A DNA stretch of 64,000 nt from Lama guanicoe (GCA_013239625.1 MU053881.1:14562373-14626372); one strand, 5' to 3'; counted from the first letter of the stretch, positions 3,121 to 20,168 are shown. Made by a program: numbers and translations. The notes: a model not told the origin generated them from the letters alone.

Positions 3121-3546
3121 AGATTTTGCTTTAAAAAGAAAAGCAAAGCCCCGAATAGTCTGGCTCCAACCCACTACTGACAACCAGAGGGAATGGTTGT
3201 AAGCTGGATGTGGGCTTTGGGTCTTATCTGGAAGAGCTGCTGCATCCATAGGCTGTGGATGCAGGTGTCAGAGGCACCTACTGCCAGAGCTGCCACATAC
3301 AGAGCCCTAGGCTGGCTTCCCCAGGTTGGGTGACCACGACAGGTTGTTCTTTTCTGAGCTTCTCTCATGCTTATCTGTAAAATAGGGGTGGCATCCTCAG
3401 TGCTTCTGAGCACTCCCTGGCTGCCAGGTGCTGTGCTGCATGCTTAGGACCCAGCCCCGGGGGCTTAGGGCATTCAGGTTAGGCAGGAAGATGGGGAAAC
3501 CTGTGCCGCAGACTTTGAGTATGGGTATCCTTCCTTATATCCCCAG

Positions 3547-3747
3547 ATGCCCCCCCCAGTGCACCTAGTGCCCCACCTCGTGTGCTCCCCCGCACTGGGA
3601 AGAGGCCACCCCTCATCAGCAGCCCTCTGGGCCAGGTGAAGAACTATGTGCATGCCAAGCAGCTGCCTGTGGCCAGCCGCCCAAGTGTCTTCCAGTCTCC
3701 TGATGAGGACGAGGAGGAGGACTATGAGCAGTGGCTGGAGATCAAAG
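3547..3747 (+). CDS. SUGP1: SUGP1 exon 4
   Basis: cccag|ATG...AAAG|gtaag; DAPPSAPS...[23 protein letters not shown]; 201 nt, phase 1-1. Confidence 0.93.
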
Positions 3748-5728
3748 GTAAGGTGCAAGGGCTGCCACCCTCTGTCCACAGTCACTCCTCCAGCTCCACA
3801 GGCAGGATCCCTGGTCAGCAGGGGCGTAGCGTGTTTGGAGCTGTGGTCGGAGGTGCTGCCAGGCCTCCAGGCTGAGCCACAGGTCAGGGTGGAGCCCTTC
3901 AGGGTGAAGGTAAAGGATGGGGTGGAGAGGGGAGTGTGGAGGGGCTGCAGAATGTGGCTTCATTCTGGGAGCTGTGGGACCATTGTCCACTCATGGGGGC
4001 TGGTCTCCATCTGGTGGAGGGTGGGATCTCAGGGCAGTGTTCACTTGTGTCCTCATCCAGTGCTAGAGGAGGAGCTCCTCAATGTTAACCTGTCTCCAGC
4101 AGTTTGGGCCAGAGGTAACAAGCCTGCAGGTTGGAGCATGTGCTCTCCTGCCCAGGGAAGGATGGTCATTGGCTTTGGGTGAGCTAGTTCAGGCCCCATG
4201 GTGGTGGAGGGCAGAGGCGGGTGGCAGTGGAGGCACTCCTTGTGCATCCAGCCCTGTCCACATTCAGAACAAGACCTCAGTGCCATCTAAGCTATGTGGA
4301 GGACTGGGCCACCTCTGCTCCAGGATGGCTGGCACAGTCATATCTCTCTAACAGTGAGAACAGACTGAAGTGACCACATTGTTATGCCATGAAAGCCTCT
4401 AGACCCGTTGCTCTGGGTAAGGGTGCTGGCTTCAGGCCATATATCTGAGCAACTCTGTGGCCAACCTCAAACTTTGGAGCATTAGTTGAATGGAGCCAGT
4501 GAGGGTGGCATTCCCTCAGAGAGATGCTCAGGCAGTTCCAACAGTACCCTGCTGGGAACTGCCGCCTTACAAAGGGCAGTGGGTGTCTCTCAAGACCCTT
4601 GAGGCTTATTATGGATTGCGATTGATGTGACCTCAAAAAAGCACATGTGCTTGTAGAGTGACCAGGTCAGGGTCATTGCCAGGCATGTGGGAGGAAGTGA
4701 GGCTAAGGGGTAAGTTGGGCACAGAATGTCTCTAGGACCACTTAGGCCACACATCGTACCATCACCCCACCTCACCCCTGAGCTTTCTGGCAGCACAAGC
4801 AACAGGGGGAATAAAATTGGCCACAGGCTTAGTGTCTAGCCCCGTTGTCAAGAGGAACAAATGTTCCTAAGGACTGACTGACATCAAGAAACTTCTTCTG
4901 GGAGTTCTCATACAAGGGACATGAGCTGTATGGTGGCTGACAGATAGCCTCAGAAACAGGCCAGTAATAAATACAAAATCAAGTTCCGTGTGGCTCAAAA
5001 CGGAGGCTAATACAACTACAAAAATATATTTTTATAGCTTTGTTCACTGAAGATTTTGTAAAGTAGTGATTAAGCCTGTTGCAGTGAGCATCCCTGGTGC
5101 CCGGAAACCACGGAAACCAGGGCTTCTTGGAGAAATGGCTGGCTCTAGGTCTGGGCAGGAAGTGTCTGAGATGATCTTGAAGCACCCTGTCCCAGCAGAT
5201 AGTGAGGAGGCCATTAGAGACTCCTGGGGTCATGGCCAAAGGCCTCAGGAGCCAGCTTGAATAGGCCCCCTGGCCATAGAGGGGCTGACTGAGCTTTTGT
5301 GATGACATTGTGAAGCCCACTGATGGGCTTCTGACTTTGTAATGATATTTTTAAAAAAGAACTTGTCATTTTTGAAGGATAACAGTGGAGTGATTTATTA
5401 TACTGAACACTGGTTTAAAAAAAATTGACCATTCCAAAAAAGGAAGGGGAGGCTGGCTGTGTTTTTTGTCGTCTCTCTCCCAGCCTGGGGATTGACTTGG
5501 CCTTTGGGAGGCTTACACACTTTTCTCCCCTCAGCATGTCTCGCAGACTGTCTAGACCGACTCACCCCTCATCATGGTGCTTTGTGCATGGACCTGGGAC
5601 GCCCGACAACCTCCCGCATTTCACCCTCTTCTCCCCCCACCCCTCTGTCCTTGTGGTCCGTAGAGAGAGTGTGCCTGTTGACTGTGGGGTGTGTGAGTTG
5701 AACCCCAGTACTGACAGCCTCCTTAAAG

Positions 5729-5852
5729 TTTCACCCCCAGAGGGAGCCGAGACTCGGAAAGTGATAGAGAAATTGGCCCGCTTTGTGGCAGAAGGAGGCC
5801 CCGAGTTAGAAAAAGTAGCTATGGAGAACTACAAGGATAACCCGGCGTTTTC
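5729..5852 (+). CDS. SUGP1: SUGP1 exon 5 (SURP1 N-terminal half)
   Basis: ttaaag|TTTCACC...TTTTC|gtaag; [41 protein letters not shown]; alternative acceptor would start at 5741. Confidence 0.92.
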
Positions 5853-6180
5853 GTAAGTATTTCTGGGAGGGGAAGGCCACTGCTACTTCTTGTTCTTGTC
5901 ACACGTTAGTACATGCAGACGTTCTTGTAAAGCCGTAGTGGTGACAGGCTGGCCGGGGCTGGGTGCTTACTTGCACAAACCAGACACTGTTTGAGCGCTT
6001 TCTAACTCACACTGGAGGTTGCAAGGGGCTCCAGTATGGCGTGGAGACTTACTTTTGGGCCCCATCAAGGTGTCTGTGCTCGCCAGCTTGCTTTTGCACA
6101 ACGTGTCTTCAGAAGCTTCATGGGTCTGCCCATCCCCGTCGCTCATCTTCCACTCTCTGTTTTGCCCAATTCCTTTCCAG

Positions 6181-6281
6181 GTTTTTGCACGATAAGAATA
6201 GCAGGGAATTCCTCTACTACAGAAAGAAGGTGGCTGAGATAAGAAAGGAAGCACAGAAGTTGCAGACAGCCTCTCAGAAAG
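6181..6281 (+). CDS. SUGP1: SUGP1 exon 6 (SURP1 C-terminal half)
   Basis: ttccag|G...AAAG|gtagg; [26 protein letters not shown]. Confidence 0.95.
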
Positions 6282-7253
6282 GTAGGTGGTTGAAGGGGGT
6301 GGGAGGTTCTAGGGAGGCGTGTGGACAAACCACACCCCATGTGGAATGGGGGTTCCTTTCCTGGAGTCTGCTGTGGCATAGGGTGGCATCAACAGCACAG
6401 GTCTGTGCCCTCCCAGGCAGCTGGGGTCATGCTGGGGCTGGCTCTGTGCTCTCTGCTGGTACTCTGAGGGTAAGGAAATCTAAGGGTCAAGGTGAAGGTC
6501 AGAATCATGTCCAGGAGCTCAGCCCTGTGCATGTAAAGGGGGCATAGGGGAGGTACACTTGCCTCTTGTTGGTTCATGGTCACTTTCACAAGTGCTATTG
6601 AGCACCTGCTGCATGCTGAGCACTGAGGACACTTAGAGACAAGCAGTGCCTAACACTGTGAAGAGGGGCCAGGGGACAGAAACGGTCAGCTGGTGAGAGC
6701 CTGGTGGGATGTGTCAGGGGAGGGGGAGATGCCAGCTGGTTTCCAGGTGTAATGAAGTGAAATCACAGCCAGGTGCTGGTGGGCAGCAGGGGTATTGATG
6801 TTTAAGCTAAATGTGGGACACAGACGGTTCATTGTGTCTGTCACTTGCAGTCCCTTGCCCTGATCTTCTCCTCAAGAGAGGAGGGCCAGGCCCACCCCTA
6901 CCATGTGACCTGGGGCTGCAGCTCCCAGCAGAAAGACCGATGTTGGGGTTCCCATCCCCTCTCCAGCCTGGACCCAGACTTTCCCTCACATTCTGTTCCC
7001 ATGTCCTAGTGTGTGCCCAAAGCCTGCAGACCTGTGGGGTGGGAAGGGTCGGGATGTGGTGGGGCGGAGGCTTAAGATATATTATTATGTTAACTATGGT
7101 ATTTGGTTCCAGTACAGTAATCTGATTCCCATTTGCCTGTTTTTCTTTGTATTGTTCCTAAAATAAACCCCTCTTGTTGCCTGTGGGGTTCTTAGCAGAA
7201 ATTAGGCTGTTGGGTGTGGTGAGTTGAGCTCAGTACTGACAGCCTGCTTAAAG

Positions 7254-7377
7254 TTTCACCCCCAGAGGACGAAGAGGTCAAGAACCTCGCAGAAAAGTTG
7301 GCCAGGTTCATAGCAGATGGGGGTCCCGAGGTGGAAACCATTGCCCTCCAGAACAACCGCGAGAACCAGGCATTCAG
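7254..7377 (+). CDS. SUGP1: SUGP1 exon 7 (SURP2 N-terminal half)
   Basis: ttaaag|TTTCACC...TTCAG|gtaag; [41 protein letters not shown]; same length (124 nt) as exon 5; missing from the ORF track. Confidence 0.92.
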
Positions 7378-10284
7378 GTAAGGATGGGGGACCTGTTGGG
7401 GAGGTGATCCCTCACCCTAGTCAGAGCTTCCCTGCTGAGAGGTGTGGTGTTGAGATGTGCTAGGGTCCCATGGCAAGAAGTTGGCAGGGCCAGGACTCAG
7501 GTCCAAGAGGTTCTGACCACAGGGTTTTAGGCCTGCCACCCCGTAGCATTCCCTGAGTGCACATTGGTGCCCTGAATCGGCTCTTGAGATGGCTGTGTGG
7601 GGACCTTTGGGGCCTTGTGCCTCACAGAGAACATCTCTAGCACTTGCCTTGCTCCCTTTATACCAGAAACAGCAGCTCCAGGCTGGGGGCAGGCCAAGCT
7701 TTCAAACAGAAACTCACGGAATTGTTCACTGTGTACATTTTTGGGGTCTCATCTTTATGATAACGGGGAATGTGGTACCTCAGACTCTGGGGAGGGGCAA
7801 CCCCCAGCCTGTGTGTACTTTCCACAGAGGGGGTAGGACAAGCCACCTGGCATCCCTGCTGTTCCCAGCCATGGAGTCACACCCCAGCCCCTCAGACTGG
7901 GTCTGTGCTCACCCGCTCTTCCATTTATTGGGTGGGTTCAGAACCTGCTCTTTGCAGGGGAAGGCTGATGGGGACGGTGCGGAGGTGGGGGTGAGGCAAT
8001 CGCTGCTGCAGGGCAGGGACTCGAAGAGGTTTGTGAGGTGGACACTGAACCCGCTGTGAGGGTGATGCACCCATAAGGACACTTTTGGCCACAAGTAACA
8101 CAAGTCCCCAGTGAGTCAGTGAGGAGATGTGATGGTGCTTGTAACAAAAAGTGCCAGAGCAGCAGCCATCTGGGCTGGTTGATTCAGCAGCTCTAGACAC
8201 CATCAGGGACTCAGGAAGAAGGAAGCAGGAGTGGATGCTGGGCAGGCGGCCAGTCGCATCTACTACATGCGAGCTAGCATGAGCTAGACGTGGGACAAAG
8301 TGAAGGGCGTTTGGAGGGACTGCCTTGCAGAAGTGAGGCAACAGAGATGGGGGCGTTGTGCCACCATGGTGGGGATTCAGGGTGAGTGTTGGCATGGTGA
8401 AGACGGGCCATGAAGCCAGGCAGGGCTGAGTCCCAGAGGGCTCAAATGTTCACTGAGAACCTTTGGAGGGTCTGCATAGGGAGTGATGGGGTCAGCTGTG
8501 CTTCCAGGGTCATCTGGCCACAGCTGCGAAGGGTGGTCAGACACACCAGGTTGAGGCAGATGAGGGCATCATCAGGTGGGGGCTGAAGGGTTCAGGTGTA
8601 CCTGTGTATGGAACATGGCCAGCTAGGAGCTTTTGTGGGGGCTGTGGGGTTTGGGTCTAGAGTTCAGGAGACCTGGGATCTCCACAACATAGTGATACCA
8701 GCCACCACTCTGCTCTACCCAAACCAGTGTTTACTTAACATTCTACTTTAATTCACATCTTACTTTTTTTTTCATTTACATAAGTTTATTTAAATGGGGA
8801 ATGTAGTGTACTGTCACTCATCATGAGAAGAGCTGATTAAAAATCTATTATAGGCAGAGTGGGTGAGGTAATGGAATTCTGTACAAGGCCCAGAGCCCAG
8901 GTGGCTCTTCCTGGTCAGAGGGGCCCCAGGGCTGAGCAGCTCCAGCTGAGCCTTTCCCCTGGGGTCAAAGCGAAGAGATGTTACCACAAGTGGCTCTAGG
9001 CCCTCCATGGTACCTTTTGTGGGACATGGCTGGCAGGCATTGGCTTGTTGAGTGTGGCCTTGATGGATGCTGGGTGGTGACAGCCAGGAGTAAGGACAGA
9101 CCCTGAGGGTACCTGGCGGAGAAGCAGCTGAGGTTGACCAGCTTGCTTTGGGCGAGCTCATTTCCATGTCAGAGCTGAACCACAGTCAGTACTCTGCATT
9201 GGGGAAGAGTAAATGAGGTAAGATCAGGTGTCCAGCCCTGTGCAAGCCATGTAGGTTCATACCAAGCAGACTGTTACATCTTCACAAAGGGTCAGGTGCA
9301 AGGCAGCTCCTCTGGCACCCCCAGATCTAATAGCCACCTCAAGTTCCTGCCACTGTTGGTCCTTTCCTGCCCTCTTGATTCCCCAGCAGCTCTGTGTTTT
9401 GAAAAACAATGGTTAACAGCTATACGTGTCCGTAAAGAAGCTGGAAATACCTATTCCTTTGACCAGTCATCCCACTTCAGAGATGCCATCCCCAGAAATA
9501 ATGTTATACGTAGCACTGTCATAGTTACGAAAAATTAGTTAACACGTTCAATATCCAGCCCCAGTGGGCTAAACTCCTATAACTGCATCTCCCCAGTGGA
9601 ATTGTGGCCATCAGAAGGCAAGTTGGAGAAGGTGATAGCAGCCAGCACACCTCAAGTCACATGTGGCTCTAACATCACCCGGGTGAACCACGTTGTTCTG
9701 TACAACAGCCTGGCATGCTGGCCTCTTACAGGTGAGGAATCCGAGGCAAGGAGGCCAGTCAGTGGAGGTGCCTTCACTACCATGCTATGTTGCATTCTAA
9801 TGGGAAAGGAAAGCCTTATGTTGTCAAGTTAAGAAATTTTTTAAAAATCAGGGTGTGGAAAATAGAATCATGGCTCTGTTCATATAAATCCACACTGGAA
9901 AAAAGTCTGGAAGGAAAGGCACCAAAGTGTTAACTTTGGTTAACCCTGAGGGTGGGATCACTCCTACTAGAGGGGGTCTTTGCACCTGTGCCCGGGGCCC
10001 ACAGTGAGCTGTTACTCCCCTCACAGACAGGCATAGCTCTCAGGGCAGGTTGGAGGAGATTCAGTGTGAATAGGCAGCTGAGGCCAGGAAGAAGCCTGTG
10101 AGCTGAGAGGAGACCCACACCGTCAGGAGCTGCCCACCTGCCCCAGTGGGCGAATCCCCCAGTCTTCTTTGCTTGGAGGAACCGGATAGCTTTGAATCCA
10201 TGCTCTGGTTGCCATGAGTCTTTTTTAAATCCAGCCATCTGCTCGCTTCCCTGTTTGAATGATTTCTTGCTTTTGTCTCTTAAC

Positions 10285-12600
10285 TTTTTTTAAGATGTTA
10301 TTTTTCAGAGCAGTTTTAGCTTCACAGCAAAATTGAGTGGAAGGTGCAGAGACTTCGCGTGTGCCCCCTGCCCCAACACATGCACAGCCTCCCCCGTTAT
10401 CAACATCTCCCGCTAGAGTAGTATACTTGTTACAGTTGATGAACCTGTATTGACACATCATAATCACCCAAAGTCTATAGTTTATGTTAGGGTTCACTTT
10501 TCCTGCTGTATATTCTATGGATTTGGACAAATGTGTAGTGACATATATCCATCGTTGTGGTGTCATACGGAGTATTCTCAGTGCCCTAAAATTCCCCGTG
10601 TTCTGCCTATTCATCTCTTTTTCTTCCTTAACCCCAGGCAACCGCTGATTTTTTTTTCTGACTCCGTAGTTTTGCCTTTTCCAGAATGTCATATAATTGG
10701 AGTCATAGTATGTTGCCTTTTTGGATTGGCTTCTTTCACTTAGTAATATGCATTTAATTTAAGGTTGCTCCAAAGTTGTTGGGGTTTTTTTGGTTTTTTG
10801 TTTTGTTTTTTTTGTGTGTGTTTTTTGTTTGTTTGTTTGTTTTGCTTGATAGCTCATTTCTTTTTAGACTGAATGATTTTCCATTGTCTAGATGTACCAC
10901 AGTTTATTTATCCATTCATCTCCTGCATGGCATCTTGGTTGCTTCCAAGATTTGGCAATTATGAATAAAGTTGCTGTAAACATCTGTGTACAGGATTTTT
11001 GTGTGGACATAAATTTTCAACTCTTTTATACCAAGAAGTGTGATTGCTGGATCGTATGATACATTTAGTTTTGTAAGAAACTGGTTAACTGTCTTCCAGA
11101 GTGACTAGTATCAAGCAGAGAGAACATTTCTTAACCAGTAAGCCCTGAAGTGTGATAGTGTCAGTTCTCCAACTTTGTTCTTTTTCCATATTGTGTTGAC
11201 TGTTGTAGGGCTTTTGTCTCTCTGTATAAACTTTAGAATCAGATTGTCAATATTTGCAAAATAACTTGCTGGGATTTTGACTGGAATTGCACTGAATCTA
11301 GAAATCAAGTTGGAAATAACTGACATCTTGACAGTGGTGAGTCTTCCTATCCATGAACATGTAATCTCTTCATTTATTTAGTTCTTTGAATTCGTTCATC
11401 AGAGTTTTTTAGTTTTCCTCATATAGATCTTATACATATTTTGTTAGACTTATATCTAAGTAGTTCATTTTGGGAAATGCTAGTGTAAATGTTTTTAATT
11501 TCAAATTCTACGTGTTCATTGCTGGTGTGTAGGAATGTGATTGACTTCTGTATATTAATCTTGTATCCTGCAACCTTTCTATAATAGCTTGTTAATTCCA
11601 GGATGGGTTTTCTGGTCTTTGATCTGTTTTTTTTTCCTATGTAGATGATCATGTCATATTTCTTCCTTCTCAATCAGTACATCTTCTGTTTCCTTTTCTC
11701 ATCTTACTGCATTAGCTAGAACTTCCAGTATGATGATGAAAAGCATTGGAGGGGTGGGATATTCTTGCCTGGTTTCTGTTTTCAGTGGGAAAGCTTCAAG
11801 TTTCTTATGTAAGTATGATGTAAGATATAGGTTTTTTTATAGATATTCTTTATCAAGTGGAGGAAGTTCCCTTATGTTCCTAGTTTACTGAGAGTTTTCT
11901 TGTGAATGTATATTAGATTTTGTTAAATGCTTTTTCTGCAGCGATTGATATGATCATGTGATTTTTCTTCTTTAGCCTATTAATGTGATGGATTACACTA
12001 CTTTTTTTCCCCTTCTTTTGATGGGGGGAGGCCATTAGGATATTTATTTATTTTCTTAAATGGAGATATTGGGAACTGAACCCAGGACCTTGTGCATGCT
12101 AAGCATGCACTCCACCACCAGGCTGCACCCTCCCCCACCAGATTACATTACTTGATTTTCAAATGTTGAAGCAGCATTGTGTGCTTGAAATTAAGCCCAT
12201 TTGGTTGTGGTGTAGAACTCTTTTTATACATTGGTGGATTAAGTTTGCTAATGTTTCGTTGAGGATTTTTATATCTCTGTTCACGAGGGATGTTGGTCTG
12301 TAGTTTTCTTTCCTTGTAATGTTTCTGTCTGGTTTTAGTATTAGGGTAATTGAGTGAGTTAGGAAATGTTCTCTCTGCTTCTGTCCTCTGAAAGAGATTG
12401 TACAGAATTGGTGTGATCTTTTTCTTTAAATGTTGGGTAGAATTCACCAGTGAACTTTTGGAAGATTATTAATTATTGATTCAATTTCTTTAATAGAAAT
12501 AGGCCTGTTTAGATTGTCTGTTTCTTCTTGTGTGAGTTCTGGCAGATTGTATCTTTCAAAGAATTGGTTCATTTCATCTAGGTTATCAGATTTGTGGCAT
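10285..12600 (-). mobile_element. Old L1 fragments (3'UTR and ORF2 pieces) in SUGP1 intron 7
   Basis: Minus-strand ORFs with L1 ORF2-like peptides (LNRPISIKEIESIINNLP; INIQKSITFLHTSNE; FSAIPVKIP). Confidence 0.85.
12002..12138 (-). mobile_element. tRNA-derived SINE nested in L1
   Basis: gaacccaggaccttgtgcatgctaagcatgcac; flanking direct repeat gattacactac/gattacattac. Confidence 0.85.
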
Positions 12601-13644
12601 AGAGGCCAGTCTCCCCATCCCTCCATCCCACTCTAGGTATTGATGTTATTAACAGACCTAGGAGTTCTTCCATCCCTTTCCCAGCTCTCATGTAGAAATA
12701 GTCTGTGGGTTTTTTCTGCTAACTTTCTCTTATATAGAAGGAATTTACATCATCCTTGAGCCTGCATGTTACTTTTGTAGTACAGCATTGTACCATGACT
12801 GTCCCTCCAGGTTCACGAGTATAGGTGTAGCCTCTTCTTGTCAAGGGCTGTGTAATCTGTGCTGTGTATAGATTTTGCTGTATGGAACTGGGCTGTGACT
12901 CTTCTCTCTGGTGTGGACCCCAGAGTTGGGACAGTTGGCTCAGTATGTGCATAGTCTAAGAGATGCTGGGCAGGTGCAGAGGGAGCTACAGCCTCTGCCA
13001 GCTCTGAACCCAGCACCACTTGCTCTGCATTTGGGAACCCACAGCTTCCAGCGAGGCTGGCAGTGAGTTCCCTGTTCATTCCAGTGTTCAGTGTCTTTGT
13101 TTTGGCTCTGTTCACTCCTGATGCCTCTTAAGGATGCTTCAGAAAGGAGCACAAGTGTGCCCAGCTGTTAGGTTTGGGACAAATCCTGCCCTTCCTGGCA
13201 CCAGGTGTCTCTGGCAATTCAGGATTTCTTGGTTTGTGGGCACTGGTGCCCTCGTCTAGGGCAGCAGGGGAAAAATCCCTGCAGAGCCTTGGGAAGGTCT
13301 GAGAGAGCCCACACCATTTCCTTCAAAGCACAGGATCAGTGATAGTTTAACAGGCATACAGTAAAGATGGAATGGGGGTTTGGAGTGGCTCACAGCTCAC
13401 AGGAACAGCATCATGACAGTCTGTGGGCATGTCACACTGTTCGATAAGTTAGGGCCACCAGAGCCAGTACCCACTGAGGCTAGGCAGGGAAGGAGATCAT
13501 GATAGAGACCTCCATCTTGACATGATCCTGAAGTGACCCTGGCCGACCTGAGTGTGCCTATGCAAGGCCCACACTTCTCCTGCCCTAAATCAGGGGTAGG
13601 GGACTGAGGCTCAAAGATGGTGTTCCTCCCACTCTCCTTTGCAG

Positions 13645-14000
13645 CTTTCTGTATGAACCCAACAGCCAAGGGTACAAGTACTACCGCCAGAAGCTTGAGG
13701 AGTTCCGGAAAGCCAAGGCTGGTCCCACAGGCACCCCCACAGCACCTGACCTTTGCCTGAAGCGCAGATCTCCTCCTGAGACTCCATTGGGGTCCATGCC
13801 CACTGCCACTACATGCCCCACCTCATCTGCCCCCTTGCCCGCCATCAGCCCGTCTCCAGCTGCCCCAGGGAAGCTCGCCATCACAGCCACTATGAAGAGG
13901 AAACGAAAGAGCCGGTGGGGGCCTGAAGAAGACAAGGTGGAGCTTCCACCCGCCGAGCTGGTGCAGAGGGATGTGGATGCCTCTCCCTCGCCTCTGTCAG
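13645..14000 (+). CDS. SUGP1: SUGP1 exon 8 (SURP2 C-terminal half, Pro-rich region, KRKRKSRW motif)
   Basis: ttgcag|C...TCAG|gtggg; [20 protein letters not shown]...[19 protein letters not shown]. Confidence 0.95.
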
Positions 14001-16479
14001 GTGGGCCGACCCCCTCCCCCAGCCTATTGAAAGGGCCTAGCATCTTTCACTTCACGTAATGTTTTCAAGATTCATCTGTGTTGTAGCACACGTCAGAATT
14101 TCATTCATTTCTATGACCAAATAATATTCCAGTATATGGATAGACAACACTTTGTTTATCCTTTCATCAGTTGTTAAAGCTTGAGTTTTTACCATTTGGC
14201 GATTGCCAGTATTGCTGCTGTGAACATTGGCCTACAAGTACTATTTGGATCCCTAATTTTGATTCTTTTTTGTGTATACCTACGAGTGGCATTCCTGGGT
14301 CACGTGGTAAGTCTGAGGAATCACCAAACTGTTTTTTACAGCAGCTGCACCATTTACGTTCTGACCAGCAATGCACAAGGGTTCCAATTTTTCCACACTC
14401 TCGCCTTATTATTGTAGCTATCCTAGTAAGTGTAAAGTGAAATCACATTGTAGTTTTGATTTGCATTTCTCTAGTGACTAATGGTGTTGAGCATCCTTTC
14501 ATGTGTTTTTTGGTCATTTGTATATACTTTATTTGGAGAAATGTCTATTTTGCCCATTTTTCAATTGGGCTGTTTATCTTTTTGTTGTTGAATTGTAGTG
14601 GTTCTTTATATGTTCTGGACGTTAACCCCATTCAGATAAGTGATTTGCAAATATTTTCCCTAATTTTATCTGCTGTGTTTTCACCCTCTTAATGTCCTTT
14701 AATACACAAAAGTTTTCAATTTTAATGAAGTTCAATTTATTTTTTCTTTTGTTGCCTGTGGTTCTGGTATCATATTTAAGAAACCCCAGCCAAATACAGA
14801 GTCTTGAAGATTTCCCCCTATATTTTCTTCTAAGAGTTTTATAGTTTTAGGTCTTTCATCCATTTGGGGTTAATTGTTATATATGATAAAAGGTTAGAGT
14901 TTAACTTCATCCTTTTGCTTGTGGAGATCCAATTTTCCCAGCACCATTTGTTGAGAAGCTGTTGTTCTTTCCCCATTGAATGGCCTTGACGCCCTTGTCA
15001 AAAATCCCATAGATGTAAAGGTTTATTTCTGGGCTCTCTGTTCTATTACATTGGATTATATGTCTCTTCTTATGCCAATAGCACAGTTTTGATTACTGTA
15101 GCTTTCTGGTAAAATTTGAATTTGGGAGTGTCAGCCTTCCAAACTTGTTCTTCTTTTTCAGGCTTTGGCTCTTTCAGGTCCCTTGAATTTTCATATAAAT
15201 TTTCAGATGGGCTTTTCCATTTCTGCAGAAAACATTGTTGGGATTTTGATAGTGATTGCATTAAATCTGTAGGTTGTTTGGGTGGTATTGACATGTTAAC
15301 AATATTTGAGTTTTCCACTCTGAGAACATGGGCTGTTTTTCCATTTACTTAGGGTTTCTTTAATTTATTTCAACATGTTTTTGTATTTTCACCGTACAAG
15401 TCTTGTATTGCTATTTAAATTTATTCCTAAGTGATTTATTTTTGATGCTATTGCAAATGGAATTGTTTTTATTTCCTTTTTGGATTATTTGGTTTGGGTG
15501 TATGGAAATACAACTGATTTTTTTGTGTGTTAGTTATGTATCTTATACCTTTGTTGAATTTATTTATTAGCGTAACAGTCTTTAGGGTTTTCTACCTATA
15601 AGATCATGTCATCTGCAATAAGAATAGTTTTACTCTTTCCTTTCCAGTTCGGATGTCTCTCCTTTCTTTTTCTTTCCTAATTGCTCTGTAGTGCTATGTT
15701 GAATAGAAGTGGCAAAAGCAGGCATCTCTCCCTGCCTTGTTCCTGATCTTAAAGGGGAAGCTTTTGGTCTTTCACAATTAAGTATGACTTTTGCTGTGTT
15801 TTTAATACATGGCCTTTGTCTTATTGAAGAAGTTCGCTTCTGTGCCTAGTATATTGAGTGTTTTTATCATTAGACTGTTAGATTTTGTCAATGACTTTTT
15901 GTGCATCAACTGAAATGATCATGTGGTTTTTTCTTTCACTGTATTAATGTGGAGTATTACATTGATTTTTTGTATGATGAACCACCCTTGCATTCCTGGA
16001 ATAAATAATTATTTTAATATACTGATGGACTTGGTTTGCTGGTATTTTTGTACAGATTCCTGCGTCTATACTCATAAGGATTATGGGTCTGTAATTGTCT
16101 TATGTTGTCTTTGTCTGCCTTTGGTATCAGGGTAATGCTGACCTCATAAAATGAGTTAGGAAATGTTCCCTTTAATTTTTTTGGAAGAATTTGAGAATAA
16201 TTGGTGTTAATTCTTATTCTTTTAAATCTTGGGTAGAATTTACCAGTGATCCTATTTAGTTCTGGGCTTTTCTTTGTTGAGGGGAGGTTTTGATTATTGA
16301 TTCAGTTTCCTTACTTGTTATAAATCTATTCATATTTTTCTGTACTTCTTGAGTTAGTTTTGGTAGTTGTTCCATTCTAGGAATTTGTCCACTTTGTCTA
16401 GGTTATCCAGTTTGTTGGTGTACAGTTGCTTATTGTATTCTCTCATAAGCCTTTTATTTTTGTTGAGTCATTAGTAACA

Positions 16480-17354
16480 CACTAGTCCCCCTTTATCTGT
16501 GCTTCTGCTTTCTGTGGTTTCAGTTACCCACTGTCAACCATGGTCCAAAAATATTAAATGCAAAATTCCAGGAATAAATAATATAATAATATAGTTAAAA
16601 TGTAAATCGTTTTGAGAGCCATTCTGAGTAGCGTGATGAAATCTTGTGCCATCCGCTCCACCCCACCTGGGACATGAATCATCCCTTTGCCCAGGATATC
16701 CCACCTGTTAGTCATTCCTAGTCACTCAGATATCAGATTGACTGTCAGGGTATTGCAGTGCTTATCTTCACAAAACCATTATTTTACTTAATAATGGCCT
16801 CAAAGCACATGAATAGTGATGCTGGCAACTTGAACATGCCAAAGAGAAGCCATAAATTGCTTCCTTTAAGTAAAAAGGTGAAAATTCTTGAGTTAATTAG
16901 CTGAGGTGGCCAAGACCTAATAAGCTGAGGTTACCAAGATCTACAGTGAGAAGAAATCATCTATCCATGAAATTGTGAAGAAGGAAAAGGAAATTCATGC
17001 TAGTTTTGCTGTTATACCTCAAACTGCAAAAGTTACGGCCACAGTGTGTGCTAAGGGTTTAGTTAAGATGGAAAAGGCATTACATTTGTACAGTAAAATA
17101 TTGTTAGGGAGAAACTACATTCACATAATTTTTACTATAACTGTTACATTTTATTATTAGCTATTGTTGTTGATTTCTTGCTGTGCCTAATTTTTTTAAA
17201 CTTTTTTTTATTGAGTTTACTGTGTCTAATTTATAAATCAAATTTTATCATAGGTATGTATATATATAGTACACACAGGGTTCAGTATTTGTGGTTTCAG
17301 GCATCCATTAGGGGATCTTGGAATGTATCCCCTGTAGATAAAGTGGAACTACTG
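16480..17354. mobile_element. Tigger-family (MER44/Tigger7-like) DNA transposon
   Basis: Terminal inverted repeats cactagtccccctttatc / gataaagtggaactactg followed by TA; MER44-like internal sequence. Confidence 0.8.
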
Positions 17355-17604
17355 TATGCCCCATTTTTACTTTTTGTTTTAGTAGTTGAGTCTTCTTTTT
17401 TGCTTAGGCAGTCTATCTAAAGATTTGTCCATTTTGTTGATCTTTTTAAAAAGCTTTTGGTTTCATTGATTTTTCTCTCTTGTATTTCTATTTCCTGTTT
17501 CATTTTTCTCCGTCTAATCTTTATTCCTTCCTTTTGCTGGTTCTGGAATTAGTTTGCTCTACTTTTGCTGGTTTCTTAAGATGTACAGTTAGGTTATCTA
17601 TCTT

Positions 17605-17750
17605 CCTTTTTTGTTGTTTTGTTTTGGGGCGTAATTAGCTTTATTTATTTGTTTTTAATAGAAGTACTGGGGATTGAACCCAGGAGTTCACTCATTCTAA
17701 ACACACATTCTGCCACTGAGCTATACCCTCTTCCCACCTACCCCCGCCCC
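17605..17750 (-). mobile_element. tRNA-derived SINE
   Basis: gtactggggattgaacccagga...ccactgagctataccctc. Confidence 0.8.
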
Positions 17751-18399
17751 CAGGTCTATCTTTTTTTTTTTTTTAACATTTTTTTTTATCGAGTCAAATT
17801 TATCTTCTTTTTAATGTGAGCATCTACAGCTATAAATTTCCCACTTGACATTGCTTTTGCTGCATCCAATAAGTTTTGATGTGTGTTATGCTTTTGTGTT
17901 TATTCATCTCTAAGCATTTTCTGATCTCTTGTGATTTCCTCTTTGACCCATTGATTAAGAGTGTGTTATTTAATTTCTAGATTTTTGAGTTTTCCAGTTT
18001 TCCTTCTGTTACTGATTTCTAGTTTCATTCCATTGTGATCAGAAAAGAAATCATACTTGGTATGATTTCAGTCTTTTAAAATTTATTAAAACTTGTTTTA
18101 TAGCCAAACCTATGATCTGTTCTGGAGAATGTTCCGTGTGCACTTGAGGGGACTATATTCTGCTGTTGGATTTCTTGTTCAATAGGTGTCTGTTAGGTCT
18201 GGTTGGTTCATAGTGTTGTTCAGTCCTCTATATCCTTATTGATCTTCTGTTCATATGTTCTGTCCATTATTTAAAATGGGATATTGAAATTTCCAACAGT
18301 TACTATATTATTTCTTCCTTCAGTTTTGTCAATTTTTATCATGTATCTTGGGCCTGTGTTGTTAGGTGTGTGTGTGTATGTATGTATATATTTATTTAT

Positions 18400-20168
18400 A
18401 AATTTTTAAAAATTGAAGTATAGTCAGTTTACAGTGTTGTGTCAATTTCTGGTGTACAGCATAGTAGTTCAGTCATATATATCCATACATATATTCGTTT
18501 TTATATTCTTTTTCGTTATACATTACTACAAGCTATTGAATGTAGTTCCCTGTGCTATACAGTATAAATTTGTTATTTATCTATTTTTATATATACCAGT
18601 CAGTATCTGCAGATCTCGAACTCCCAGTTTATGTCTTCCTACCCACTTCTCCCCTGGTAACCATAAGTTTGTTTTCTGTGTCTTGAGTCTGTGTCTGTTT
18701 TGTAAATAACTTCATGTCTTTTTTTTTTTAGATTCCACATGTAAGTGATATATGGTATTTTCTTTCTCTTTCTGGCTTACTTCATTTAGAATGATAATCT
18801 CCAGGTCTGTCCATGTTGCTGCAAATGGCTGAGTAGTATCCCATTGTACAAATATACCACAACTCTTATCCACTCATCTGTCGATAGACATTTAGGTTGT
18901 TTCCATGTCTTGGCTATTGTAAATAGTGATGCTGTGAGCATTGGGGTGCATGTATCTTTTCAAATTAAAGTTCCCTCTGGATATTTGCCCAGGAGCGGGA
19001 TTGCTGGATCATATGGTAAGTCTGTCTTTAGTTTTTTGAGGAATCTCCATGCTGTTTTCCATAATGGCTACACCAAACTACATTCCCACCAACAGTGTAG
19101 GAAGGTGCCCTTTTCTCCACACCCTCTCCAGCATTTATTGTTTGTGGACTTTTGAATGATGGCCATTCTGACTGGTGTGAGGTGATACCTCACTGTAGTT
19201 TTGATTTGCGTTTCTCTGATAATTAGTGATATTGAGCATTTTTTTAAGTGCCTATTGGCCATTTGTATGTCTTCATTGGAGAATTGCTTATTTAGGTCTT
19301 CTGCCCATTTTTGGATTGGGTGGTTTGCTTTTTTTATTATTAAGTTGTATGAGCTGTTTATATATTCTGGAAATTAAGTCCTTGTCAGTCTCATCTTTTG
19401 CAAATATTTTTTCCCATTCCATAGGTTGTCTTTTTGTTTTGCTCTGGCTTCCTTTGCAGTGCAAAAGCTTATAAGGTTAATTAGGTCCCATTTGTTTATT
19501 TTTGCTTTTATTCCTATTCCTGGGTAGATTGCCCTGGGAGAACATTGCTGAAATTTATGTCAGAGAATGTTTTGCCTGTGTTTTCTTCTAACAGGTCTAT
19601 AGTGTCTTGTCTTAAGTTTAAATCTTTAAGCCATTTTGAGTTTATTTTTGTGTATGGTGTGAGAGATTGTTCTAACTTTATTGATGTGCAGCTGTCCAGT
19701 TCTCCCAACACCATTTGCTGAAGAGACTCTACTCCATTGTATATTTATATTCTTGCCTCCTTTGTTACAGATTAATTGACCAGAAGTCTGTGGATTTATT
19801 CCTAGGCTCTCTATTCTGTTCCATTGATCCATATGTCTGTTTTTTGTACCAATACCATGCTTTTTTTGATTACTGTAGTTCTGTAGTATTGTCTGAAGTC
19901 TGGGAGGGTTATTCCTCCAGCTTCATTCTTTTCCTTCAGTGTTGTTTTGGTAATTCTGGATCTTTTGTGATTCCATATAAATCTTAGGATTCTAGTTCTG
20001 TGAAAAATGTCCTGGGTAATTGGATAGAGATTGCATTAAATCTGTAGATTGCTTTGGGTAGTGTGGCCGTTTTAATAGTATTAATTCTTCCAATCCAAAA
20101 ACGTGGAATATCTTTCCATTTCTTTAAATCATCTTTCATTTCCTTAGTTAGTGTTTTGTAGTTCTCCT
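18400..20168 (-). mobile_element. Younger lineage-specific, 5'-truncated L1 (~1.8 kb)
   Basis: ORF2 C-terminal peptides ([18 protein letters not shown]...HCWWEC; DQWNRIE); flanking repeat tatatttattta on both sides. Confidence 0.88.

Follow-up and report, generated by a model that had tools for sequence, protein, structure and literature searches.

Twin 3' splice-site modules before the two SURP domains of SUGP1 may make productive splicing depend on branch-site and 3'-splice-site handling

A stretch of 64,000 nucleotides (nt) of Lama guanicoe DNA (GCA_013239625.1, MU053881.1:14562373-14626372), referred to below as the window, carries on its plus strand most of the vertebrate SUGP1 (splicing factor 4, SF4) gene. 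The exons that open the two SURP domains of this gene are preceded by the same unusual 3' splice-site module: a near-consensus branch site, an acceptor AAG that follows it with almost no pyrimidine (Py) tract in between, a second in-frame AG shortly inside the exon, and, farther upstream, a conventional acceptor whose use shifts the reading frame. An initial annotation of this DNA had drawn attention to the twin cassette at the core of the module; its presence was confirmed, and it proved to be larger than had been noted. It is possible, though somewhat short of an even chance, that these twin, purposely weak acceptors make productive SUGP1 mRNA depend on the machinery that recognizes the branch site and the 3' splice site. 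The initial annotation had proposed that the choice between the AAG and the second AG senses SUGP1 activity and switches a form lacking the residues VSPP (delta-VSPP) on and off. That interpretation is partly supported, in that its geometry, conservation and alternative forms hold, whereas the sensing of SUGP1 activity and the delta-VSPP switch do not.

The translation of positions 5731-5853 matched the solved structure of SURP1 of splicing factor 4 (1UG0, E 4.7e-21), and that of positions 7256-7375 matched the solved SURP2 (1X4O, E 4.5e-21). The exon layout was obtained by tblastn with an orthologue (P0010), and the splice sites were then set by in-frame in-silico splicing. Structure matches and tblastn agree that the gene is SUGP1/SF4 and that the two exons open SURP1 and SURP2, as initially annotated, with the correction that the first SURP exon ends at 5852 (donor GT 5853-54) and SURP1b at 6281. 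The exons that matter here are as follows.

End at 3747, plus strand: exon 3 (tblastn and in-silico splicing).
5729..5852, plus strand, 124 nt: exon SURP1a (tblastn and in-silico splicing).
6181..6281, plus strand, 101 nt: exon SURP1b, with an ordinary Py-tract acceptor.
7254..7377, plus strand, 124 nt: exon SURP2a (tblastn and in-silico splicing).
Start at 13645, plus strand: the exon after SURP2a.

An intron interrupts SURP1 and SURP2 at matching positions and in matching phase, and the two halves of the gene are thus an old duplication of a two-exon unit.

Direct reading and a script both found that 37 of 38 nt agree between 5706-5743 and 7231-7268, as had been claimed, the sole mismatch being C5721 versus G7246. 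Three core motifs of the cassette each occur exactly twice in the window, on the plus strand only. When a 35-nt pattern with up to three mismatches was searched in the 2.05-gigabase assembly, only these two sites were found, and the reversed control pattern gave none; a dispersed repeat was therefore rejected. A repeat search of 4500-8500 (seed 9, minimum 14) returned 12 weak families, and the script-confirmed 38-nt pair, with its spacing of 1525, was not among them. Two other genes of this genome, one SUGP2-like (L012) and one U2SURP-like (L008), do not share the cassette before their SURP exons; both have ordinary Py-tract acceptors.

Identity between the copies is concentrated around the splice site. 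The last 23 nt of the introns are identical at 22 positions, and the likeness extends to about -50, with 43-44 identical bases in 51-52 aligned columns and one gap. The first 15 nt of the exons are identical throughout, and the remainder of the exons agree in 68 of 111 columns. For comparison, the -50..-1 flanks of the gene's other acceptors shared a mean of 28 and a maximum of 35 identical bases over 54 pairs, and the flanks of the paralogous SURP-b exons shared 27. These segment identities bear out the view that the copies resemble each other much more closely at the intron end and exon start than in the coding sequence farther on. The likeness had been put at 23 intronic nt; the identity there stands, but the extent does not, since it reaches about 50 nt into each intron.

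Both copies have the same layout around the acceptor, with all of the following on the plus strand.

5709..5715: branch-site motif TACTGAC of copy 1, with branch A 5714; the yUnAy nearest to the used AG.
7234..7240: branch-site motif TACTGAC of copy 2, with branch A 7239; the only yUnAy in the last 110 nt of the intron.
5727..5728: AG used for full-length SURP1a; surrounding sequence cttaAAG, position -3 an A.
7252..7253: AG used for SURP2a; surrounding sequence again cttaAAG, position -3 an A.
5729..5740: exon start TTTCACCCCC (V-S-P-P) and then a second AG, 5739-5740; proposed exon-embedded Py tract.
7254..7265: exon start TTTCACCCCC and then a second AG, 7264-7265, in the same layout as the SURP1a copy.

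The distance from the branch A to the G of the used AG is 14 nt in both copies, without a real Py tract, and the second AG lies 26 nt past the branch A in both, so that its use would start the exons at 5741 and 7266. A motif scan thus reproduced the branch points and both AG positions that had been annotated. In the 20 nt before each AG there are 11-12 pyrimidines for the used acceptors and 14-15 for the AG at +12; that of SURP1a has 15, with C at -3. Both used acceptors have 11-12 pyrimidines in -23..-4, a longest pyrimidine run of 3-7 and A at -3, whereas the nine other scored acceptors of the gene have C or T at -3 and 12-17 pyrimidines. The used acceptors before SURP1a and SURP2a are atypical within the SUGP1 gene. 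In-silico splicing agreed with the annotation that the +12 AG is in frame and drops VSPP and that the AGs at -20 and -11 cause frameshifts.

The only difference between the cassettes falls in the spacer between branch site and acceptor, which is TCCTTAA, resembling a U12 branch site, at 5720-5726 and TGCTTAA at 7245-7251. A U12-type intron was rejected: there is no /RTATCCTT donor, the donors are AAG/GTAAGG and AAG/GTAGGT, and copy 2 has the spacer TGCTTAA.

The module continues upstream of the cassette with a second set of signals, again on the plus strand.

5628..5663: the -65 acceptor ahead of SURP1a, with its Py tract and TAG (AG 5662-5663); 15 pyrimidines in 20 nt, T at -3.
5664..5728: 65-nt stretch that becomes exonic with use of -65; frameshift and stop TGA 5699-5701 (in silico).
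5693..5698: GTGAGT, resembling a 5' splice site, 36 nt ahead of the AG in use; mammalian and bird models read ..CEL.. across it.
7160..7195: the -58 acceptor ahead of SURP2a, with its Py tract and TAG (AG 7194-7195; sequence scan).
7196..7253: 58-nt stretch that becomes exonic with use of -58; frameshift and stop TGA 7225-7227 (in silico).
7219..7224: GTGAGT, resembling a 5' splice site, 35 nt ahead of the AG in use; a camel model splices in frame at the AG within it (7222-7223, -30).
5533..5534: candidate far-upstream acceptor AG at about -194, behind a strong Py tract; taken from other species' models, with its probable position here.

The -65 and -58 sites are conventional acceptors with a real Py tract, upstream of both used AGs, and both of their frames end at a TGA inside a conserved GAGTTGA. 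GTRAGT occurs in the last 110 nt of just 2 of the 11 SUGP1 introns, and these are the two.

Human data place splicing events at the same offsets. Table S7 of PMC12434867 (Xing et al., Cell Rep 2025) lists alternative 3' splice sites on AQR knockdown and includes two SUGP1 events. One is an 'annotated' site 65 nt upstream of chr19:19414657-19416657, with a percent-spliced-in (PSI) value that rises from 0.084 to 0.368 on AQR knockdown; the other is a 'cryptic' site 58 nt upstream of 19413198-19414156, with a PSI that rises from 0.017 to 0.158. The human spans are 2000 and 958, with a spacing of 501, versus introns of 1981 and 972 and a spacing of 553 in the window, where an AG behind a Py tract is found at exactly -65 and -58. 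Because spans, spacing and exact offsets match, the tabulated human events are taken to be the -65 and -58 acceptors of the twin modules. They are other sites than the AGs of the initial annotation, being 65 and 58 nt upstream, frameshifting and AQR responsive. According to the legend of Fig. S2 of the same paper, some 40% of the SF3B1-mutant events are reproduced by AQR loss, 'reflecting SUGP1 missplicing.' Apart from this paper and its preprint, whose authors may detail more, no publication on SUGP1's own splicing was found by title or abstract opening.

Gene models provide further instances of upstream joins. An elephant isoform X2 model (P0039) fits exon 3 in a shifted frame joined at -65. 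The intron-derived stretch of whale, macaque and human models begins near the -194 acceptor: a whale model (P0004) has exon 3 in a shifted frame joined near -194, and P0041, P0167 and P0172 read EIK/VCLTKTV.. from a join near -194. P0172 is a human cDNA-derived 'RNA-binding protein splice variant b' of 218 amino acids (aa). Pig, sheep and oryx models start in, or retain, the intron before SURP1a.

Human 'splice variant b' and 'SUGP1 isoform 8' end shortly past EIK/VCLTKTV (related models include P0163). The -194 join is in frame in macaque (706-aa model), and in the window it is a frameshift with a stop at the same TGA. The camel model P0005 uses the AG within the GTGAGT of the SURP2 module (-30, 7222-7224), which adds 10 residues in frame, and another camel model, P0002, continues for 14 codons into the intron past SURP1b. 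In duck and quail models (P0063, P0092), which are probably ab initio, the SURP1a donor at 5852 is joined to 7234 (the -20 AG), so that SURP1b is skipped in frame.

Conservation was read from SUGP1 protein models that run into introns, i.e., from accidental intron translations. The translation ..STDSLLK/V.. is shared by many mammals, several birds and a cobra. Before SURP1, the window's intron string recurs, unchanged or with few changes, in pig, sheep, oryx, blue whale, macaque, Chlorocebus and marmot; elephant has CELSPRTDSLLK; and among birds, quail and another bird have one string in common, Manacus has PSTDSLLK and Leptosomus has TDSLLK. Before SURP2, camel, duck and quail share a string, and king cobra reads ..RTDSLLK. 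Since about three in four non-coding changes would alter the translation, identical translations suggest nucleotide sequences that are themselves near-identical, and the intron part is probably near-identical in DNA across these species. Each copy has therefore been maintained separately, and nearly unchanged, for some 300 million years, from before the divergence of mammals, birds and snakes. Among 291 models the exon-start residues vary only as V/I and S/L, and PP is invariant; the S/L change would fit TCA to TTA, with the pyrimidine kept.

In mammals the intron likeness before SURP1a is unbroken in frame for about 58 codons. The last ~190 nt of the intron (5533-5728) lie in an open reading frame (ORF), 5419-5856, and are open in the SURP frame. 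The ~58 open codons translate alike in pig, whale, oryx, sheep and macaque, and their changes resemble those of conserved non-coding DNA rather than of a selected peptide. The genomic ORF of the 5533-5728 stretch is on record on 136 contigs (P0441).

Searches beyond these models were negative or too sparse. In metagenome contigs, a two-exon alignment search gave 268 pattern stretches and no confirmed case, and an exact 22-nt pattern had no match. A representative protein search found a SURP start with the motif in 13 of 149 new proteins, too few to date the module beyond amniotes. Rfam gave no match at E <= 1 for 3500-8000 on either strand. The long SUGP1 introns at 10000-20000 of the window are rich in AT (GC 0.34-0.38), show a strongly negative AT skew and are probably occupied by interspersed repeats.

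The VSPP residues were missing from a small share of 257 SUGP1 models, which are not independent of each other and some of which are ab initio, with the AG possibly picked by rule, so that the counts are not usage frequencies. SURP1 lacked VSPP in 12 of the 257, 11 of these with the exact join ..EIK/EG..; they include Equus quagga X2 (with the full-length X1 alongside), Pan troglodytes 'isoform 12,' Mus musculus 'isoform CRA_b,' Mus pahari X2, Kogia X2, Budorcas X2, Herpailurus X2 and Balaenoptera X3. SURP2 lacked VSPP in 6 of the 257: Propithecus X2, Macaca X9 and X4, Microtus, the turtle Carettochelys X2 and the bird Leptosomus. Further searches yielded a few more. Forms joined at the +12 AGs of the initial annotation thus exist, for both exons, at the level of annotation only. 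The intact form accounts for 220 plus 15 of 247 SURP1 contexts, counted as models and not as reads.

The layout of the module suggests how it might work. A near-consensus TACTGAC lies only 14 nt from the used AAG, with almost no Py tract between them, and the tract and AG seen by U2AF would lie inside the exon, in TTTCACCCCC-AG, which codes for VSPP-E. The AAG, being the first AG that the branch point can reach at a workable spacing, would be chosen in the second catalytic step, and the +12 AG would be a minor in-frame alternative. The conventional strong acceptor at -65 or -58 would lead to a frameshift and a TGA within the conserved block, the neighboring GTGAGT could hold U1, and the extended forms would presumably be degraded by nonsense-mediated decay (NMD). 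With two suboptimal sites and competing frameshifting acceptors, the productive share of SUGP1 would depend twice on how such sites are handled. The module may then act as a checkpoint on dosage or quality, one of the unproductive-splicing type often found in splicing-factor genes.

Several points weigh against this reading. A weak site can be conserved simply because constitutive splicing needs every remaining signal. NMD of the extended forms, U2AF binding within the exon and any regulator are presumed. The conservation was seen in translated gene models, not in nucleotides, and one passerine model, Serilophus lunatus (P0444), reads ..WNLHLLK/VLPPE in place of ..STDSLLK/, which reflects either a differing branch motif or a faulty model or assembly. 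The human events were mapped by intron lengths and exact offsets, not by aligned sequence. Use of the alternative acceptors is known from gene models and one human data set; many of the models are ab initio, and the 12 and 6 VSPP-less cases among 257 carry no information on amounts. Four folds of the RNA gave z scores of +0.40 to -0.68, no better than shuffled sequence, and the minimum-free-energy structures differed between the copies; no stable or shared structure was found, and RNA structure was rejected as an explanation.

Of the other explanations, a purely constitutive constraint survives best, although we regard it as rather unlikely. In such a case an acceptor without a tract would need a perfect branch site, the right spacing and exonic pyrimidines, and the alternative forms would be noise. 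Most models do use the AAG, the control PSI values of the upstream human events in table S7 are low (0.084 and 0.017), and no regulator is known. However, constitutive constraint gives no account of why a Py tract has not re-evolved in ~300 million years in either of two introns that are free to change. It also leaves unexplained the strong frameshifting acceptor just upstream of both sites, and the ~25-40 further intron bases upstream of the branch site, including GTGAGT, that are conserved both from copy to copy and from mammals to birds.

The reading of the modules as weak, machinery-dependent acceptors could be taken further. The modules might let the branch-site fidelity machinery (SF3B1-SUGP1-DHX15, AQR) sense how well it is performing, as a double, self-referential checkpoint on SUGP1 dosage in which GTGAGT and the upstream acceptor would serve as a decoy, catching rejected transcripts in a dead-end form. 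We think this unlikely. If it were true, full-length SUGP1 mRNA would be made only through two sites of the very kind that SUGP1 polices.

Autoregulation by quality control is a variant to which we would give quite a small probability. SUGP1-DHX15 would reject spliceosomes at these sites, and an excess of SUGP1 would reduce its own mRNA by favoring -65/-58 or intron retention. Widespread splicing quality control by DHX15, with SUGP1 as its G-patch activator, is described in bioRxiv 10.1101/2022.11.14.516533, and both the suboptimal acceptors and the extended forms with premature stops would suit such a loop. AQR knockdown, though it perturbs another factor, raises the unproductive forms in the published table, which is the wrong direction for a homeostatic loop.

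The model of the initial annotation, in which the choice between the AAG and the +12 CAG senses SUGP1/SF3B1 activity, with high SUGP1 favoring delta-VSPP and low SUGP1 the intact protein in a negative feedback loop installed twice, now seems improbable. It drew on real features: conservation of the cassette is deep; an AG close to a strong branch site, with a stronger-looking AG 12 nt downstream, resembles the cryptic sites seen with mutant SF3B1 or SUGP1 loss; and VSPP-less models exist for both exons in mammals, turtle and birds, with X1 and X2 of Equus quagga in one annotation. Nevertheless, VSPP lies ~7 residues before the Pfam SURP module, outside it, and the module scores 110.8 bits in both Equus quagga isoforms. 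Since the score is the same with and without VSPP, a loss of function in delta-VSPP is not indicated, which speaks against a functional switch. Most models have the intact form, so that the range for regulation is probably small. The tie between AG choice and SF3B1 activity also found no backing in one data set: SUGP1 is absent, as a gene, from the 295 SF3B1-mutant-specific cryptic 3' splice-site events of table S9 of PMC12434867, where the name appears only in the title and column heads.

Recent gene conversion between the paralogous exons, without function, would suit a high-identity tract that is short (~65 nt) and sharply bounded, but the sharing of one intron translation, at one or both copies, by many mammals, birds and a cobra means that the identity is not restricted to one lineage; such a restriction would, by the initial annotation, have refuted its proposal. 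Recent conversion is rejected as most improbable.

According to published abstracts, SUGP1 loss from mutant SF3B1 explains cancer-type missplicing. By intron lengths and offsets, the two tabulated AQR missplicing events fall at one duplicated, conserved module, which gives them a defined cis-element. The module also raises a concrete and testable question, namely, whether SUGP1 dosage is coupled to how well branch sites and 3' splice sites are recognized.

The module can be compared with several known systems. SF3B1 hotspot mutations or SUGP1 loss activate cryptic 3' splice sites (PMC12434867, PMC7790757 and PMC9894173). Such sites share with the module a weak tract, a strong branch site close by and an AG that shortly precedes a stronger-looking one, and the geometry of an AG 10-30 nt upstream with a weak tract is found here, with the AGs 12 nt apart and 11-12 versus 14-15 pyrimidines. 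They differ in that the upstream AG of SUGP1 is the one that most gene models use, and the response that defines the class was not seen for SUGP1 among the 295 events of that one table.

Alternative splicing coupled to NMD (AS-NMD) involves ultraconserved elements in splicing-factor genes, such as the poison exons of SR proteins (PMC12632421, PMC13228269 and PMC11357089). The SUGP1 module is likewise a deeply conserved non-coding element in a splicing-factor gene, and its alternative use brings a premature stop. Conservation far beyond the neutral expectation was found at the level of translation, with P0444 divergent, and the premature stop was found in silico, with the same offsets in the human SUGP1 table. 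Unlike SR-protein poison exons, SUGP1 has alternative acceptors and not a cassette exon, in two paralogous copies, and autoregulation is not implied. Autoregulation is known for su(w[a])/SFSWAP.

Decoy exons and detained introns have been described (Boutz 2015, PMC4281565; for OGT, PMC7261177; for SFSWAP, PMC11507684). Like decoy exons, the module lies within an intron of a gene related to splicing and has a strong acceptor with a consensus-like GTGAGT 23-29 nt after it; unlike them, the would-be decoy of SUGP1 is just 35-36 nt from the real acceptor. Tandem alternative acceptors, between which C* proteins choose after the first step (PMC9984181), are alike in having two in-frame AGs 12 nt apart behind one branch point. 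Compared with NAGNAG sites, the spacing in SUGP1 is larger and the context is conserved far beyond the two AGs.

The closest layout is that of Drosophila Sxl, whose male exon, as reported by Lallena and colleagues in 2002, is said to have a dual-AG 3' splice site used through SPF45. In Sxl the distal tract and AG recruit U2AF, and the proximal AG serves exon ligation. SPF45 is a G-patch protein of the U2/SF3B1 circle, as is SUGP1. Both systems have a branch point, a proximal AG, a Py tract and a distal AG in this order; in SUGP1 these are A5714, AG 5727-28, TTTCACCCCC and AG 5739-40, and again 7239, 7252-53 and 7264-65 in the second copy. The module is thus a natural, twice-replicated acceptor with a Py tract apparently in the exon, useful for studying AG choice after the first catalytic step. 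It differs from Sxl in that the division of labor between the AGs is presumed, both AGs are in frame, the tract is coding, and the module is duplicated within one gene.

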